From assembly GCA_036507075.1 (NCBI GenBank), contig DASXQR010000033.1, positions 1 to 12,813 of the forward strand: a DNA stretch of 12,813 bases, read 5' to 3'. Under the pieces are notes generated by a model, which had not been told where the DNA came from, did no database searches, and was given only the letters and a program-made list of their open reading frames with translations. Numbering within the stretch: the stretch's first letter is position 1; each line of letters begins with the position of its first letter. Made by a program: the position numbers and the translations under genes. Positions 360 through 9,489 of this stretch are shown piece by piece. Source of the DNA: Acidobacteriota bacterium. Lineage in GTDB: Bacteria; Acidobacteriota; UBA6911; JACQSX01.

Positions 360-2291
360 ATGAAACCGAGATATCTCCTTTTACTGGCTGTATCATTTTT
401 TGCAATCTCTTCAAAAAGCTCCTCCGCTTTCGAATCGTGGAATCAACAGAATTATTCACAATTCGAAAATCACCAATCGCCGATCCGCAATCGACAATCC
501 CCGGCCCGCCCTAATATTCTTTGGATCACCAGCGAAGACAACGGTCCTCACCTTGGCTGTTATGGCGACTCCTACGCGGTAACGCCCAACCTGGATCGGC
601 TGGCGTCCCGAGGCCTGATCTACCTGCACGCCTGGTCGTGCGGGCCGGTGTGCGCGCCTGCGCGCACCACCATTATTTCAGGGCTTTATCCTCCCTCGAC
701 AGGCTCAGAGCACATGCGCAGCACCACTCGCCTGCCCTCGGGAATGAAAATGTACCCGCAGTTCCTGCGCGAAGCGGGCTACTACTGCACCAACAACAGT
801 AAGGAAGATTACAACCTGGAAAAGCCCGGCGCAGTCTGGGATGAATCTTCAAGGAAGGCCCATTGGAAAAACCGAAAATCTGGACAGCCCTTCTTTGCCG
901 TCTTCAATATCGAAATCAGCCACGAAAGCCAGATACGCCGGCGCCCTCACACGCTGGTGCATGACCCGGCCGGGGTGAGGATCCCGGCCTACCATCCCGA
1001 CACGCCCGAGGTGCGACACGACTGGGCGCAGTATTACGATAACCTCACTTCCATGGATGCGGTCGCTGGAGACTATCTCAAAGAAATTGAAACAGCGGGC
1101 CTGGGAGACGACACCATCATCTTTTATTACGGAGATCACGGGTCGGGAATGCCTCGCAGCAAGCGTTGGCCTTACAATTCCGGCCTGCAGGTACCGCTGA
1201 TTGTTTCCATTCCTGTGAAATTCAAACATCTCGCCCCGCGCGAATACGCGCCGGGGGGCAAATCCGAGCGCCTGGTGAGTTTTGTCGATCTGGCGCCCAC
1301 GCTGTTGAGCCTGATCGGCACTAAACCGCCGCCCCTTCTGCAGGGACATGCTTTCATGGGCCGCTATGAAGAGAGGTGGCAGCCTTACATCTACGGCTTC
1401 CGCGGACGCATGGATGAGCGGTACGACATGGTTCGGTCGGTGCGGGACCAGCGCTATGTTTACATTCGCAATTTCATGCCCCACCTGATCTACGGCCAGC
1501 ACGTGGATTACATGTTTGAGACGCCCACCACGCAGATTTGGAAGAAGCTTTACGACCAGGGCAAGCTGGCTCCGCCCAAAACATACTTCTGGGAGAAAAA
1601 GCCGCCTGAGGAGCTCTATGATTTGCAAAACGACCGGGACGAAGTCAGAAACCTGGCGGGCTCACCCGACCATTCACAGATATTGAAGCGAATGGGCCAG
1701 GCACAGCGTGCGCTGTTGTTCAAAATCCGGGATATCGGTTTTCTTCCCGAAGGCGAGATTCATTCCCGATCCAGGGATTCATCCCCGTACGAAACGGCTC
1801 ATGACGAAAGGCGCTATCCGTTGACAAGAATTGCGGAAACGGCCGATGTGGCTTCTTCTCTGAAGGCAAATTCGCTTCCGCGTCTGAAGAAAGATCTCAG
1901 GGATCCGGACGGCGCCGTACGGTACTGGGCTGCACTGGGAATTCTGATGCGCGGCAAAGAAGCAGTCGCAGCCGGCGGGCCTGAGCTGCGAGGCGCCCTT
2001 TCCGATGCTTCGCCTTACGTGCGCATCGTGGCAGCGCAGGCGCTCGCGCAGTGGGGTGGCGCAGCCGATTTGACGAAGGCGCTGGATGTACTGATACAAC
2101 TGGCGCCCGTCGATAAGAATGGAATCTATGTATCCCTGGCGGCTCTGAACGCACTGGACGCGATCGATGACAAGGCGTCTGCTTTAAGTAACGCAATAAG
2201 GACACTTCCAACATCGGACGCATCGGTAGACGCACGCATGCAGAATTACATTCCGCGGTTGATCGATAAGATCCTGGCGGATCTTAAGTAG
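360..2291 (+). CDS. Exported sulfatase (Cys/formylglycine type) with C-terminal HEAT-like repeats
   Basis: 643 aa. Signal peptide MKPRYLLLLAVSFFAISSKSSSA; RPNILWITSED start of the sulfatase domain; CxPxR motif CAPARTTIISG (651-683); YYGDHG; VSFVDLAPT; EELYDLQNDRDE; HEAT-like DPDGAVRYWAALG and LSDASPYVRIVAAQAL. GGGGAG SD-like sequence upstream. Confidence 0.93.
   Translation: MKPRYLLLLAVSFFAISSKSSSAFESWNQQNYSQFENHQSPIRNRQSPARPNILWITSEDNGPHLGCYGDSYAVTPNLDRLASRGLIYLHAWSCGPVCAPARTTIISGLYPPSTGSEHMRSTTRLPSGMKMYPQFLREAGYYCTNNSKEDYNLEKPGAVWDESSRKAHWKNRKSGQPFFAVFNIEISHESQIRRRPHTLVHDPAGVRIPAYHPDTPEVRHDWAQYYDNLTSMDAVAGDYLKEIETAGLGDDTIIFYYGDHGSGMPRSKRWPYNSGLQVPLIVSIPVKFKHLAPREYAPGGKSERLVSFVDLAPTLLSLIGTKPPPLLQGHAFMGRYEERWQPYIYGFRGRMDERYDMVRSVRDQRYVYIRNFMPHLIYGQHVDYMFETPTTQIWKKLYDQGKLAPPKTYFWEKKPPEELYDLQNDRDEVRNLAGSPDHSQILKRMGQAQRALLFKIRDIGFLPEGEIHSRSRDSSPYETAHDERRYPLTRIAETADVASSLKANSLPRLKKDLRDPDGAVRYWAALGILMRGKEAVAAGGPELRGALSDASPYVRIVAAQALAQWGGAADLTKALDVLIQLAPVDKNGIYVSLAALNALDAIDDKASALSNAIRTLPTSDASVDARMQNYIPRLIDKILADLK
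428..502. repeat. Degenerate heptamer array and imperfect hairpin inside the sulfatase CDS
   Basis: Seven consecutive 7-mers at 454-502: ATTCACA ATTCGAA AATCACC AATCGCC GATCCGC AATCGAC AATCCCC. TTTCGAATCGTGGAAT (428-443) pairs with ATTCACAATTCGAAA (454-468) with one mismatch and one bulge. Confidence 0.7.
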
Positions 2292-2305
2292 GAGTGAACG
2301 CCTGA

Positions 2306-2351
2306 CTTGGCACCTTGGTGGTTCAATTCTTTTTACCACCAAGGCACCAAG
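2306..2351. repeat. REP-like palindromic element, copy 2 (inverted relative to copies 1 and 3); possible terminator between convergent genes
   Basis: CTTGGCACCTTGGTGGT (2306-2322) and ACCACCAAGGCACCAAG (2335-2351) are 15/17 complementary. Its reverse complement aligns with 217-267 and 6148-6194, including the loop. Confidence 0.88.
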
Positions 2352-2393
2352 ACCGCCTAACTTTCATACTGCATGACCGATGATTACTGAAAC

Positions 2394-5300
2394 TCAGCTC
2401 AAAAAGCTGAAGGCGGGCGAGATCCAGGAGAACAGGAACCTTCCCAGTGCCGGAAACTGCGCGGCCAGAAAAGTGGCCACGGGCAGCACCGCGTAAGTAA
2501 ACACCTGCGACAAGAAGCGGCGATCCAGCGACAGGCGATTCGGCTCGGTATTGGCGATGCGGCTCAACACTTCGTTTCTGTCCATTTGAATGAATACGGT
2601 GAGCACCATTGTTACCAGAATGGCCAGGGCAATCCAGATGACGCTCACCAGCACCTGCTGTTGCTGGAAGGGATAGGAGGTCAGGGCCAGGATCAAAAGA
2701 ACGCCGCCAACGGTGGAGCAGATAAGAAGATTCTTTAAGTGGCTGAACACGCAACTGGCAAAGAAAGTAATCTGGAGCGCGCAGAAATCTTCCAGCAGCC
2801 GAAACCAGAACTGCGGAAAAGAGGAAACCGCCCTGCGATAAAGCGTGGCAGAATCGACGTTCAATGGGACCGACTTGGGGTCGTCCGGAAGCAGCGATTT
2901 CCCCGGCCGTCTCTCCCAATGCAGCCACAGATGCTTCATCAACTCGGAAGAGAGTGAAAACAGTTTTCTCTGCGTTTCGCTGCACCAGGCCGACGTACGC
3001 AGCCGCCTTTCGGTGGCGTCCTTCAATTCCTTCTCAAACGTTTCTTTTATATCCTCTGTTCCCTGCAACACACTCTTGATTCCTTCCAGCTCTGCTTCCG
3101 TGAAAAACCCGGAAAGATCCTGCGAAATCATGGTGCGGAAGTGATTTGAAATCAGCACCAGCTGATCAACAGACAAACCCAGCTCCGTAACCGACGGAGG
3201 TCTGGCCGAGAACTGCAGGCTGAGCATTCTGGAAAGTTTCGGTGAGAGTCGATCGAAAGCCTCGGCAATGGGATGCCACGCAAGCCGCCGCAGCAGACGC
3301 CGGAACTGATACCAGGTGGACAAAAATCTCAGCCCGGAGCGGATCACACAAAGTAACAGGATCGTGGTGAGAAGAAACGCAAGCCAGTTGAACCACCGGT
3401 ATTCAAAAGTCGCAAATACCCTGTGTCCGACACCGACGGCGGGAAGCAGCGCTAGCAGCACCATCGAACCGATCGCCAGCCCCGGGGAGGTTCCGCAATC
3501 CCAGGACTTGAGACATCGCAGAACCCTTTCCCGGCTGTGAGAGAGATCCGACTCGCGGGGAGGCGAGCCGGGGAACGGATTCAAGCTCTGCAACTGGTCG
3601 GCAAATTCGTGACGCCACAACTGTGACAGTAACCAGAAGTAGACTCCCACGCTCAGGAAGAGCAGCGGCACGATGGGAGAAAGACCGCTGCCCAGAGTGG
3701 TGGCCCGCTCGTAGAGCAGGTTGTGGACCGGCTTGGTTATCAAAAACAACATCCAGAAGCCCGCCACGACAATTACGAGAGCCACCACTCCGGCCGCGGC
3801 CCCCTTCCAGCGCAGGCGCTCTCTGAGCTTTTCCTTCAGAAGGCTTTGGACGAACAGAACGCCGGAGTCAAACCAGATCCCCGCCAGCGCCCAAACAAGA
3901 AGAAACGCCGCGGAAAGCAGACTGAGATTGACCAGATATCTCCGCCCGTCGGGATCACCCTTCAATTCCATAATCGCCGGGATCAGGCTAATCATTACAA
4001 CCAGCAAATAAAGGATCAGAAAAACCGACAGGTAAGAAAACACATACGCCCGATAGGCAATCCACTGAAGCGCGCCGTCAGCGGTGGGGACCGGGCTCGC
4101 GGCGCTGCACCGGCGCCATTCGATGTTGAAGGAGTATCCCCGCACGCCCCATACGGTGTCGCGGACGGCCGCACGCGCGCCCCGCGGGTAATTTGAGATG
4201 TGAAGAAGGCACCACACTGTCAGCAGCGCCACAAATACCCAAAAGGAAATCGGATGTGCAGTCGGCAACCGTTTGAGCTCCGCCCCTCCCGTTTCGGGAT
4301 AAAACCTGAGCGGCCACAGTCTGCTGCGACCTACCGCCGAGATATAAACCGGCGGTGTCTGCCCCTGATTCAAAGTTTCCCTGGAATAAGAAATCACTTC
4401 AGAAGAAGCAGTCTCGTCCCTCTTCAGAACGGCAGTGACCGCGTTATAGACACCCTCGACCGCCCCGTTCGGAAATTGGAGCAATTCACTGGAGGCCGGA
4501 ACCAGTGGGTATGTGGAGACAACCAGCATCCCGCTCAGATCCGTTATCAGTTCAGGATGGGCGTACAGAATATCGCTTTCGAATGTAATCAACTGGGCGT
4601 TTGGCGCATGCGCTCGTATCAGTCGCGCAAGAAACAGCTTGTCGCGAGTGTCCGTGCCGGCCAAGACGATGTAGCGAATTTTCTGGCGCTCTATGGTATT
4701 CAAAATGTGCGCCAGTTCCAGTTCGGCAACGCTTGCCGTCTGACCGGGCGCGTAGGATGGAAGAATGTCGGAACCCGCGGTAATGCCCTCGGCAAGAGAG
4801 AGCGCCACGGCCTTCTCTTTCCACGGGCTTTTTGCGGCTTCCGCTTTCAATCTTTCATCCCGTTCGTAGGCGGCGCGCAGTTGCGAAACGTGCATCGGAT
4901 AACTCGCCTCGAAGGCGGGCATCTGGTCTTCCTTGGCCGCGCCGGAAGCCTTCGGTGGAAGTTTGCCCAAAAAACGACTGCCGTAGGCGCTGGCCTCGGA
5001 AATGATCGCGACCTTGCTGATACTGATCCCGAAGTAGGGAAGGTAGTAGTCGAAGAACGTTTCTTTCAGCAGATCGTCCGCATACACCAGCGGCAGGAAC
5101 GTGGTTTTGATGGTGTACCCGCCTGCGACCTTTGGTGGAAGCTCGAATTTTAGCAGCGCCGGATTGGCGGGGCTGGTGGCGCTGCCCGAGACAAAATAAA
5201 GTTTGACGGCTCGGCTGCCCGAGTCATCGGCCCCTGCTCCTTCGCCGCCCGCCTTTTTCGAACTAAGACTGGTCTTACCGGGATTATGCAATGGAGGTCC

Positions 5301-6065
5301 CGAGTTCTGCCACTCGCTTAGCGCCATGCGCAGCGAAATTGCCGAACCGGAAAACGAAGGGCCTATCAAGGTGATTTCATACGAGCTGGAAAGCTCCATT
5401 ACGGCGTCAAGCGCCCTCATCAACGCCTGCTTCTGGACCCCGGAAGTAGGAGTTTCCCCTACCAGCAGAATCAGCAGCAGGTCCGGATCCTGCAGCGGCT
5501 GAGAAACGTTCGTTTTGCGAAACAGCAGCACGCCGGGTTCTTGACGATACGCTGCATTTTCCGGCGCGTCAGCTTCGCGCAGAGCATTGAGAGGCCAGGG
5601 AAGCCAATGGCTGTCAAACTGGTATCCCGATTTCTGAACACCGCGCTGGATCGCTTCCAGAAAGTCATCCGAAAAGTTGCTGAGGTGTGAATCGCGAGGG
5701 TCGGGAATCGATGCGATCAGAAATCTCACATGCTTGTCGCCTTCATTCGATTTCAAAACTCGATCCGTGATTCTCCCGCGAACAGCCGCACTCAGCCGCG
5801 TGGCTGCAGCCTCTCCGGACTTTTCAGACTTTTCAAATTCCAGCTCAATTCCGTAGAACCTGCCCAGAATCCAAAGATGGTGTTCCGGTGAAATCCTGGG
5901 CGATTCGACGCCCGCCCTTTCCTGCACCCGCGCGCCGGGGCCATTGGGAGCAGAGGAGCTGGAACTCTGGCTCTTGGAAGGACTCCACACTCCGGGCATT
6001 TGCACGCCCAGTGTCAAACCGAGACCCGCGACGACCAAGAATCCAACCCAACGACGCTCATCCAT
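2394..6065 (-). CDS. Large uncharacterised polytopic membrane protein: N-terminal type-I PBP/Venus-flytrap-like domain plus about 10 TM segments
   Basis: 1223-aa uninterrupted ORF. N-terminal hydrophobic anchor/signal (WVGFLVVAGLGLTLGV), Ser-rich linker, a soluble alpha/beta domain to about aa 600 with LIGPSFSGSAISL, FVSGSATSP and KVAIISEASAYG, then many hydrophobic segments from about aa 605 to the C-terminus. The ORF is well supported; the function call is tentative. Confidence 0.8.
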   Translation of the reverse strand: MDERRWVGFLVVAGLGLTLGVQMPGVWSPSKSQSSSSSAPNGPGARVQERAGVESPRISPEHHLWILGRFYGIELEFEKSEKSGEAAATRLSAAVRGRITDRVLKSNEGDKHVRFLIASIPDPRDSHLSNFSDDFLEAIQRGVQKSGYQFDSHWLPWPLNALREADAPENAAYRQEPGVLLFRKTNVSQPLQDPDLLLILLVGETPTSGVQKQALMRALDAVMELSSSYEITLIGPSFSGSAISLRMALSEWQNSGPPLHNPGKTSLSSKKAGGEGAGADDSGSRAVKLYFVSGSATSPANPALLKFELPPKVAGGYTIKTTFLPLVYADDLLKETFFDYYLPYFGISISKVAIISEASAYGSRFLGKLPPKASGAAKEDQMPAFEASYPMHVSQLRAAYERDERLKAEAAKSPWKEKAVALSLAEGITAGSDILPSYAPGQTASVAELELAHILNTIERQKIRYIVLAGTDTRDKLFLARLIRAHAPNAQLITFESDILYAHPELITDLSGMLVVSTYPLVPASSELLQFPNGAVEGVYNAVTAVLKRDETASSEVISYSRETLNQGQTPPVYISAVGRSRLWPLRFYPETGGAELKRLPTAHPISFWVFVALLTVWCLLHISNYPRGARAAVRDTVWGVRGYSFNIEWRRCSAASPVPTADGALQWIAYRAYVFSYLSVFLILYLLVVMISLIPAIMELKGDPDGRRYLVNLSLLSAAFLLVWALAGIWFDSGVLFVQSLLKEKLRERLRWKGAAAGVVALVIVVAGFWMLFLITKPVHNLLYERATTLGSGLSPIVPLLFLSVGVYFWLLSQLWRHEFADQLQSLNPFPGSPPRESDLSHSRERVLRCLKSWDCGTSPGLAIGSMVLLALLPAVGVGHRVFATFEYRWFNWLAFLLTTILLLCVIRSGLRFLSTWYQFRRLLRRLAWHPIAEAFDRLSPKLSRMLSLQFSARPPSVTELGLSVDQLVLISNHFRTMISQDLSGFFTEAELEGIKSVLQGTEDIKETFEKELKDATERRLRTSAWCSETQRKLFSLSSELMKHLWLHWERRPGKSLLPDDPKSVPLNVDSATLYRRAVSSFPQFWFRLLEDFCALQITFFASCVFSHLKNLLICSTVGGVLLILALTSYPFQQQQVLVSVIWIALAILVTMVLTVFIQMDRNEVLSRIANTEPNRLSLDRRFLSQVFTYAVLPVATFLAAQFPALGRFLFSWISPAFSFLS

Positions 6066-6147
6066 AGGAATTTGCCGGGGGAACTTTCACCATAATCGCT
6101 CGAAAGGAAGGAAATTCAACTATTTTTGGTTATGCCAAAGTTTACAA

Positions 6148-6194
6148 GCTTGGTGCCTTGGTGGTAAAAAATTTGAACCACCAAGACACCAAGC
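6148..6194. repeat. REP-like palindromic element, copy 3, in the divergent intergenic region
   Basis: GCTTGGTGCCTTGGTGGT (6148-6165) and ACCACCAAGACACCAAGC (6177-6194) are 17/18 complementary. Arms are identical to copy 1; the loop is AAAAAATTTGA. Confidence 0.92.
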
Positions 6195-6210
6195 CAAGAT
6201 CAATGACCCT

Positions 6211-7230
6211 ATGCGAATTTTCAATTTCCACACCTGCGGCCGCCTATCTTTGCTTTTGGTCGTGAGCGGTTGTCTCTCTTTTGCCCGCGATTCCAAGTTG
6301 CAACTGCTGGAAGAAAGCCGGGTTTCGATGGCCTGCACGTTTTCGATCGCAGCCTACAGCGCCGATTCCGGCGGGGCGTTTGATGCCGTGAATGAGGCCT
6401 TCGGCGAAATAGACCGCATCGACCGTTTGATGAGCCATTACAATCCTAAAAGCGCGATATCTACGCTCAACCGCCAAGCCTCATCCGGCCCGACCGCCGT
6501 AGACCCGGAGCTCTTTGACTTCATTCAGGAGTGCGTCAGATACAGCCGCGAATCCGACGGCGCTTTCGACATAACCGTCGGCCCACTGATGAAAGCGTGG
6601 GGATTCTTCGAGGGAGAGGGGCGCTTTCCGTCTCCCCTTGCCCTCAAATCAGCATGCGGCAGAGTAGGCTGCAGATTTTTGAAACTTAACGCTGCCCGGA
6701 GAACAATCGAGTTCGAGCGGGGCGGAATGGAACTTGATCTCGGCGGAATTGCCAAGGGTTACGCCGTTGATCGGGCTGTAGCTCTGCTGAAGAAACGTGG
6801 AATTGAAAGCGCCCTGGTGAGCGCCGGCGGCAGTACTGTTTACGGTCTGGGACATCCGCCGGACTGCGAAGGCTGGCCAGTCGGCATTCGCGATCCGATG
6901 GGCAACAAAGGTAATGCCGAAACAGTGCTGCTTTGCAATCGAGCTCTGTCGATCTCAGGAAGTTCGGAAAAGTCTTTCCGGCGCCATGGCGTGACCTATT
7001 CGCACGTGATGGACCCGAGGACAGGGCGGCCTGTCCGCGGCATTTTGAGTGTCGCCGTTCTGGCCGACACCGGGACGGCAGGCGATGCCCTGGATAATAT
7101 CTTTTATGTTCTGGGGCCGGTGAAAAGCAAAAGCTACTTGAGCAAGGTTCCGGGAACTGAAGTGATTTTCTTTTTGCCTTTGGGCAGTCGAGCGTGGAAA
7201 TCGGTCAGGTTGAAAAGAAAAAGCCTTTGA
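6211..7230 (+). CDS. apbE: FAD:protein FMN transferase (ApbE family), probable lipoprotein
   Basis: Motifs GAFDITVGPL, LDLGGIAKGYAVD, W-x-VGIRDP, SISG and YSHVMDPRTG. Start reassigned to ATG 6211 (MRIFNF...LLLVVSGC, lipobox-like VSG|C) because the ORF-track extension from 5944 overlaps the opposite gene and reads through a repeat. Confidence 0.92.
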   Translation: MRIFNFHTCGRLSLLLVVSGCLSFARDSKLQLLEESRVSMACTFSIAAYSADSGGAFDAVNEAFGEIDRIDRLMSHYNPKSAISTLNRQASSGPTAVDPELFDFIQECVRYSRESDGAFDITVGPLMKAWGFFEGEGRFPSPLALKSACGRVGCRFLKLNAARRTIEFERGGMELDLGGIAKGYAVDRAVALLKKRGIESALVSAGGSTVYGLGHPPDCEGWPVGIRDPMGNKGNAETVLLCNRALSISGSSEKSFRRHGVTYSHVMDPRTGRPVRGILSVAVLADTGTAGDALDNIFYVLGPVKSKSYLSKVPGTEVIFFLPLGSRAWKSVRLKRKSL

Positions 7231-7303
7231 ACCACAAAGACACAAAGGCACCAAGTGGCTGTCCATCGCATTATTTAGTGTCCTTTGTGCCTCTGTGGTT
7301 CAA
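7227..7303. repeat. Related palindromic element with arms in the opposite order, overlapping the ends of two convergent genes
   Basis: The left arm TTGAACCACAAAGACACAAAGG-CACCAA (from 7227) matches the reverse complement of 7275-7303 (TTGAACCACAGAGGCACAAAGGACACTAA). It contains the apbE TGA (7228-7230) and the last codons (IEPQRHKGH*) of the opposite gene. Confidence 0.85.
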
Positions 7304-8240
7304 TGCTTTTGCTCAGATCCACCACGACATAGGTCGGCATCTCAGGTATCGTGAACTCGGTGATGCCCGCCCTGGCAGTGAAATCTTCCAAATCAATGCG
7401 GCCCTTTCCCACCGCCTGGGCGTAGTTCGCGATGCAGGAGCCTCGCAGCCGAACACGCAGCCCTCCGATAACATTCGCGCCGTAATTAATGAGGTGCAGC
7501 CGGATCCGGGATGCGTCGCCTGTAACCCGGCCGATTACGACTTCGCTTCCGTAAATGCGCAACAGCCGGTTCTCATCGCTGAGTTTGCGGCGAACCTTCA
7601 GCGCAAGGTTACTCGGGTTTTCGGCTTCCGACGCCGGATATTCGGCGCTGCCGATCTGCACGTTGATCGCAAATCTGGGATCGGGCTTCTGCACCAGGCG
7701 GAACATCAAGTTTCTCCTCACCAGGAGATTTAGAACTTCTTCCAGCAGAGGAGAATCGCTTTCCACCACCGCCAGATCCGCCAGCGGCTCCATCCGGTCC
7801 GGCTCGATCTGCTTCAGAAAGGCGAGCATTGCGGAAGCGTCTGGCACGTCGTCGGGATCAATCTTGAGAATCGCGTCGGCGCCGTAGACAAAGGCTTCGG
7901 CCGCGGCCAGCGTCGCCTTGCCCCTGGGGAGATCGTAATAATACTTTCCAGCCGAGGCTTCCCGTAAGAAAAGCCAGCCGCTGGCATTCACCCAGGGCCG
8001 GCGCGTAGGGGAAGCAGTCCTTATATTAGGAGCCACTCCCGGAACCTTCAGGCGGGTGCGTGCCCTCAGATCCGAAATACTCAGCGGCGCCGGCTGAAGG
8101 CCTGCAATCTTCCACTGCTCTACTTCCTCAGGAGGCACGTAAAACTGCTCAATTCCAGCCTGCCGGAGCACGGCAGCCTTTTCCGAGGCTTGGGAAACGT
8201 ACAGCATCGGCATGGAGAGCAAAACCAGAAGAGCCGTCAT
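7275..8240 (-). CDS. Hypothetical protein (321 aa), probable signal peptide
   Basis: ATG at 8240 overlaps the upstream gene's TGA (ATGA overlap, suggesting translational coupling). Hydrophobic N-terminus MTALLVLLSMPMLYV. Beta-rich C-terminus (RLHLINYG...LRVRL...FTIPEMPTYVVVDL) is reminiscent of glycoside-hydrolase accessory domains, unconfirmed. Confidence 0.8.
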   Translation of the reverse strand: MTALLVLLSMPMLYVSQASEKAAVLRQAGIEQFYVPPEEVEQWKIAGLQPAPLSISDLRARTRLKVPGVAPNIRTASPTRRPWVNASGWLFLREASAGKYYYDLPRGKATLAAAEAFVYGADAILKIDPDDVPDASAMLAFLKQIEPDRMEPLADLAVVESDSPLLEEVLNLLVRRNLMFRLVQKPDPRFAINVQIGSAEYPASEAENPSNLALKVRRKLSDENRLLRIYGSEVVIGRVTGDASRIRLHLINYGANVIGGLRVRLRGSCIANYAQAVGKGRIDLEDFTARAGITEFTIPEMPTYVVVDLSKSIEPQRHKGH

Positions 8241-9375: not shown

Positions 9376-9489
9376 TTCCAATGCGGAGTGCGGAATGCGG
9401 AATGCGGAATATATCCAACTTAAGTTTCCTGAGTCGAGATCAAAATCAATCCCTATTCCGCATTCCGCATTCCGAAATCCGCATTGGAA
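9376..9489. repeat. Inverted pair of heptamer (AATGCGG/CCGCATT) arrays forming a 36-bp stem around a 42-bp spacer
   Basis: TTCCAATGCGGAGTGCGGAATGCGGAATGCGGAATA (9376-9411) versus the reverse complement of 9454-9489, TTCCAATGCGGATTTCGGAATGCGGAATGCGGAATA: 34/36 identical. Confidence 0.95.

Follow-up and report, generated by a model that had tools for sequence, protein, structure and literature searches.

An Acidobacteriota membrane protein that probably joins a flytrap sensor to an insect-receptor-like channel unit

What kind of receptor is encoded by an unnamed bacterial gene whose product has, at first sight, the outline of a class C G protein-coupled receptor (GPCR)? The gene lies on the reverse strand (positions 2394-6065) of a 12,813-nt stretch of Acidobacteriota bacterium DNA (assembly GCA_036507075.1, contig DASXQR010000033.1), referred to here as the window. 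Our analysis indicates that the 1223-aa product probably consists of a type I periplasmic-binding (Venus flytrap) domain, three linker helices and a seven-transmembrane ion channel (7TMIC) unit; of the receptor-like reading in the first-pass annotation the flytrap sensor thus stands, while the class C GPCR layout gives way to this arrangement. The frame has no internal stops, its start methionine lines up with the start codons of relatives, and it is no assembly artefact, because contigs from two runs carry it gap-free: a contig of run X1, which may be the source, spans 2200-6195 with 1 differing letter, and one of run X2 spans 2253-5177 with 2. The gene is present once in its own genome, and a check for membership of a known family returned no name from Pfam or NCBIfam.

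The flytrap ectodomain

Structure models of the protein (pLDDT 81.7/pTM 0.85 and pLDDT 82.8/pTM 0.86) contain a bilobed alpha/beta fold that matches LivJ-type proteins over most of their length, and model and alignment together confirm the proposed Venus-flytrap ectodomain, with a conserved cleft (Table 1). The nearest flytrap folds are binding proteins of ABC transporters for leucine, benzoates, amides, urea and fatty acids, among them LivJ/LivK (3td9, 4n0q, 4gnr), RPA0668-type benzoate binders (4evq) and AmiC (1pea), from which the domain differs by its low identity (8-16%), the lack of a Pfam match, about 130 extra insertion residues and its fusion to a membrane domain rather than service to an ABC transporter.

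All motifs quoted in the first-pass annotation were found in place: LIGPSFSGSAISL at aa 233-245 (nt 5331-5369), FVSGSATSP at aa 291-299, KVAIISEASAYG at aa 351-362, TSYPFQ at aa 1129-1134 and QMDRNEVLSRI at aa 1160-1170. The serine, threonine and tyrosine motifs exceed chance, because they are near-invariant in an alignment of 243 family members, to which the residue counts given here refer. GPxFSGS (G235 in 216, P236 in 241, S239 in 230, G240 in 241, S241 in 217) is the probable site of one or more candidate carboxylate-binding serines, and the motif order suggests equivalence to Ser165 of mGlu1. The amino-acid recognition residues of mGlu1 given in PMC2680970 are Ser165, Thr188, Asp208, Tyr236 and Asp318; by order, rather than by residue-level superposition, they compare with the conserved S239, T297, D330 (185 members), Y361 and D472 or D498 (222 and 182 members).

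Table 1. Features of the gene and its product (residue counts out of 243 aligned members)
Feature	Residues (aa)	Window position	Strand	Remarks
Whole gene		2394..6065	-	Signal or anchor, flytrap ectodomain, three linker helices, 7TMIC-like unit
N-terminal hydrophobic segment	7-25	5991..6047	-	Hydropathy of own sequence and alignment average
Type I periplasmic-binding (Venus flytrap) domain	112-594	4284..5732	-	
GPxFSGS motif	235-241	5343..5363	-	After a strand, at helix start in model
SGSAT motif	293-297	5175..5189	-	G294 239, T297 214 plus 17 S
ExT/SxYG motif	357-362	4980..4997	-	E357 242, Y361 207 plus 30 F, G362 233
TM1-TM3 linker helices	606-744	3834..4250	-	Model helices
7TMIC-like unit, TM4-TM10	751-1204	2454..3815	-	Read as S1-S7 of insect odorant/gustatory receptor channels
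RxxxLxSGV/LSPxxP extracellular motif	787-800	3666..3707	-	Start of TM5; R787 242, S796 233
Cytoplasmic helical insertion	930-1082	2820..3278	-	Between long TM7 and TM8 (S4-S5 loop); model helices
SYPFQ(P) loop	1130-1134	2664..2678	-	Caps TM8 outside; Y1131 225, P1132 206, F1133 207
QMxRxxhLS short cytoplasmic helix and loop	1160-1181	2523..2588	-	Read as S7a; R1163 228, S1168 225
TM10	1182-1205	2451..2522	-	Read as pore helix S7b, ends QFP; P1195 238
C-terminal surface helix	1206-1223	2397..2450	-	Model helix 612-629

The membrane part and its nearest folds

A hydropathy script with 19-residue windows found, after the N-terminal segment, seven hydrophobic segments (beginning at aa 606, 681, 714, 758, 795, 862 and 894; aa 606-912, nt 4250-3330) and then three more (beginning at aa 1113, 1138 and 1184; aa 1113-1202), in agreement with the seven-plus-three layout first described, and models and alignment argue for ten transmembrane helices (TM1-TM10) after the flytrap. 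The helical linker of about 170 aa noted between the two blocks corresponds to the cytoplasmic insertion, within a loop that averages 177 aa in 146 aligned relatives. The N-terminal segment is predicted to be a signal peptide or an uncleaved anchor, followed by a low-complexity linker; together with the lysine plus arginine counts of successive loops (5.1, 0.9, 1.8, 2.0, 4.0, 1.3, 3.6, 0.4 and 3.3), which alternate as expected with one flat pair, it indicates that the flytrap is extracytoplasmic, and the same topology would put the C-terminus of the chain on the outer side. The view that the protein lacks an output domain was borne out beyond TM10, the tail after P1195 being at most 27 aa in 238/238 members of about 900-1500 aa.

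A true class C GPCR homologue would consist of the flytrap, a TM1-TM7 bundle and a three-helix tail. A Foldseek search with the near-full model does place GABA(B) receptors first (E 4e-6), and seven hydrophobic segments follow the flytrap, but these alignments rest on the flytrap, because their root mean square deviation (rmsd) is 23-26 A and the query TM-score about 0.2. What the protein has in common with mGlu, GABA(B), T1R and CaSR is the flytrap ectodomain; it differs from them in having ten helices instead of seven, a C-terminus that would lie outside rather than in the cytoplasm, and, probably, a membrane part that does not superpose (full-length alignments with rmsd over 20 A), and the class C assignment was dropped on these grounds. 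TM1-4 are, moreover, the least conserved part of the protein (mean top-residue frequency 0.17 versus 0.49 in TM8-10), a better full-chain fold match is available, and Pfam 7tm_3 gave no match on family genes in 15 genomes, and we regard such homology as highly improbable. Ionotropic glutamate receptors (iGluRs) and plant GLRs (7lzh, 3om0) are also among the closest known systems; iGluRs gate via a second, type II binding domain and have a pore of the inverted potassium-channel type, and this protein has neither.

The best full-length fold matches are channels, and the predicted fold of the C-terminal seven-helix unit (TM4-TM10) is closest to insect receptor channels (Gr43a 8jm9, BmGr9 8vc1, OR5 8z9z, Orco 8z9a, AgamOR28 8v3c). 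Given the inferred topology, the unit has its N-terminus inside and its C-terminus outside, with outer loops of 21, 12 and 7 aa versus inner loops of 44, 177 and 22 aa; its own TM4, TM5 and TM6 are long and reach into the cytoplasm (41, 47 and 28 residues; model 296-336, 490-536 and 543-570), and its last helix is split into a short 7a (model 572-577) and 7b (model 589-610). TM1-TM3, being odd in number, would connect a sensor lying outside with a unit that begins on the inner side, and four hydrophobic segments occur between P585 and R787 in 211/237 members.

At the sequence level, Pfam 7tm_7 gave a weak in-register match on the family gene of the own genome (E 0.26) and none on family genes in 14 other genomes, 7tm_6 and Trehalose_recp did not match family genes, and a PDB profile search returned no match to known 7TMICs. 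The end of TM10 is conserved (Q1203 in 173 members plus 25 with E, F1204 in 201, P1205 in 228). For gustatory receptors, PMC11100771 gives the S7b motif as TYhhhhhQF; TY-5-QF occurs in 0/146 members, and membership of the gustatory receptor family proper was rejected on this basis, while five small or hydrophobic residues precede QF in 91/146.

The protein also resembles the 7TMICs that Himmel, Moi and Benton 2023 (bioRxiv 10.1101/2023.08.30.555482) described in prokaryotes, but departs from 7TMICs in its three additional helices, its signal or anchor and the 480-aa extracellular flytrap in front, as well as in the 150-aa helical S4-S5 insertion, the C-terminal surface helix and the lack of TY at the gustatory receptor spacing. 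Insect receptors bind their ligand within the membrane bundle, whereas here a separate extracellular flytrap is present, and the 7TMIC fusions described in the accessible part of PMC9998090 are cytoplasmic (MORN, WD40). Himmel et al. place 7TMICs throughout the tree of life, with functions known almost only from insects; their structural step retained prokaryotic hits only if these had exactly 7 helices, but more than six sufficed in their sequence step. Their main text does not contain the words 'periplasmic', 'flytrap', 'fused' or 'acidobacteri', although its supplements or Dryad data could list members. The accessible portions of PMC11526382 and PMC13466386 hold nothing on a flytrap-7TMIC fusion, and our literature search, which covered subscription journals thinly, found neither such a fusion nor a description of the family.

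Coupling of the sensor to the membrane

In a mean-field coupling analysis (243 rows, Neff 207), which is noisy, the strongest flytrap-membrane pair was A577-L795 (z 15.1; flytrap-cytoplasm controls reached at most z 7.7), which links the last strands of the flytrap to the top of TM5. The pair shows size compensation. On models and alignments, the flytrap strand at aa 577 directly contacts the top of TM5 at aa 795, and the RxxxLxSGV/LSPxxP motif is the probable docking site of the flytrap. R787, S796, E/D888 and SYPFQP, all invariant and on the outer side, gather where this contact would act, P800-P1132 are coupled (z 5.7), and TM10 couples chiefly to TM9 and TM8 (A1148-A1192, F1107-Y1191). From these couplings and the clustered outer residues we infer gating by flytrap closure via S2 and S5 to S7b, and we lean, slightly beyond even, towards a ligand-gated ion channel in one chain, which pairs the 7TMIC fold with a periplasmic sensor of its own. 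A small carboxylate (an amino acid, an aromatic acid or a lipid-derived acid) would close the flytrap, and the motion would travel through the conserved outer loops (R787-P800, E888, SYPFQP) to TM8 (S5), whose counterpart in BmGr9 is coupled to the pore helix. Subunits would meet around TM10 (S7b), with the terminal pair Q1203-F1204 as the gate, after Q443/F444 of BmGr9, and the output would be ion flux (depolarisation or Ca2+ entry), which would make an enzyme domain or a constant partner gene superfluous.

The cytoplasmic insertion bears on a different reading, in which a non-conducting receptor, no class C GPCR but similar to one in its working, would alter aa 930-1082 or the TM9-TM10 loop upon flytrap closure and signal to a partner encoded elsewhere. 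All members have this helical domain of about 150 aa, its region carries the conserved W918, P932 and W1050, and signalling genes adjoin at some loci (GGDEF-GAF at L011 and L028, adenylate/guanylate cyclase at L058 and L082); but these are 4/80 loci, the domain is weakly conserved (0.25), and conservation is highest in the pore-like C-terminal helices. The couplings I972-L1091, W1050-E1092 and L1042-F1102 link the insertion to TM8. We consider a non-conducting receptor rather unlikely; even so, it would represent a large receptor family without a described output.

If the channel reading is true, it would give the first 7TMIC equipped with a sensor domain outside the cell, the first prokaryotic one whose ligand is findable with a soluble domain, and one more independent link between periplasmic binding proteins and ion channels. 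The soluble flytrap makes function directly testable, with the ligand on the isolated domain and then the channel. Confirmation would mean that the 7TMIC fold can be gated from the outer side of the membrane, and it would give flytrap domains, which engineered sensors already use, a natural channel scaffold.

Family spread and gene neighbourhoods

A word-based search yielded 22 relatives, and the profile built from them, run against 1.84 billion representatives, matched 7,433 clusters (50% identity) at E<=0.001 and 3,716 at E<=1e-30; the best 150 matches cover most of the protein length, and many weaker ones may be fragments. Scanning GTDB genomes confirmed 135/167 candidate stretches, and neighbourhoods were counted at 80 loci of these, mostly from Acidobacteriota, plus Myxococcota, Planctomycetota and others. 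The family occurs in at least 15/401 genomes of the window's phylum and in 0/4 other genomes of its own taxonomic family, with two copies each in G315 and G327, and a 69-row tree mixes phyla; the distribution is patchy and the layout constant. That a widespread, unnamed class of bacterial ligand-gated channels uses a class C GPCR-type flytrap to gate a pore folded like insect odorant/gustatory receptors has, in our judgement, an even chance of being right; its confirmation would make candidate chemosensory channels of thousands of unannotated proteins in soil Acidobacteriota, Myxococcota and Planctomycetota.

No partner gene is common to the family across the 80 loci. At 21 of them (L012-L051, one Terriglobia clade; e.g. 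L022:3069-7965) several arrangements combine a GMC oxidoreductase-hydrolase fusion and a patatin gene, often with an FAD oxidase, metallophosphoesterase, S8 peptidase or SLATT/DUF4231 gene, and a G315 member (L111:3687-13363, G315:C64) has a gene for a multi-pass patatin on one side and one for an animal-type haem peroxidase on the other, which together could yield oxidised fatty acids. Such neighbours hint at lipid-derived ligands for some members and at nothing beyond. A transporter or lipid-handling protein, whose flytrap would pass captured substrate to the ten-helix domain, would fit these lipid-acting enzymes and the ABC-transporter roles of the nearest flytrap folds, but neither an ATPase nor another transporter subunit is found repeatedly next to the gene, the best full-length matches are channels, and all 18 GMC-linked rows of the tree fall within one 23-row clade that excludes the window's protein; the G315 member also lies outside it. 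We judge this alternative clearly unlikely.

The patchy spread and mixed phyla, along with neighbouring SLATT, TIR and peptidase genes at certain loci (SLATT/DUF4231 at 7/80), could instead indicate a conflict or defence effector, whose sensor-gated pore would depolarise the cell on a danger signal; the channel mechanism would be common to both readings and the role different. Against this role, which we hold to be improbable, PADLOC matches none of five family proteins, the sensor faces outward, and the window neighbours are a sulfatase gene, convergent with the otherwise unaccompanied gene, an ApbE gene divergent from it, and genes for DUF362, one unknown protein and a PVC-type haem protein.

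At seven Myxococcales-like loci (L031, L033, L041, L044, L047, L048, L053) the gene is flanked by an RNA methyltransferase gene on one side and a RecA-like/IMS/DNA polymerase III alpha cassette on the other, a neighbourhood that is probably positional. Some relatives are in two to four pieces or carry a stop (L010, L025, L035, L045, L052, L067, L072, L084; G261, G374, G425), which may reflect assembly error or decay. The 984-aa distant relative P0171 (L003:208-3162, G025:C159) matches in the flytrap only (E 4.9e-11) and shows, by eye, a single linker helix and a compact unit of seven helices whose S4-S5 loop is short; it may be the minimal form and more suitable for folding and tetramer prediction, and a search for further members of this type found none.

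Within the window, the unknown neighbour (7275-8240, reverse strand) is a 321-aa protein in line with the DUF362 and PVC-type haem protein genes and has no Pfam, NCBIfam or PADLOC match. Short REP-like palindromic repeats with paired arms of ~25-31 nt occur at 217-268, 2303-2354, 6137-6196 and 7220-7310, flanking the 2394-6065 gene on both sides, with many further copies in the assemblies. A 7-nt tandem array (141-196) and a 36-nt inverted pair built from 7-nt units (9376-9489) are ordinary low-complexity intergenic repeats.
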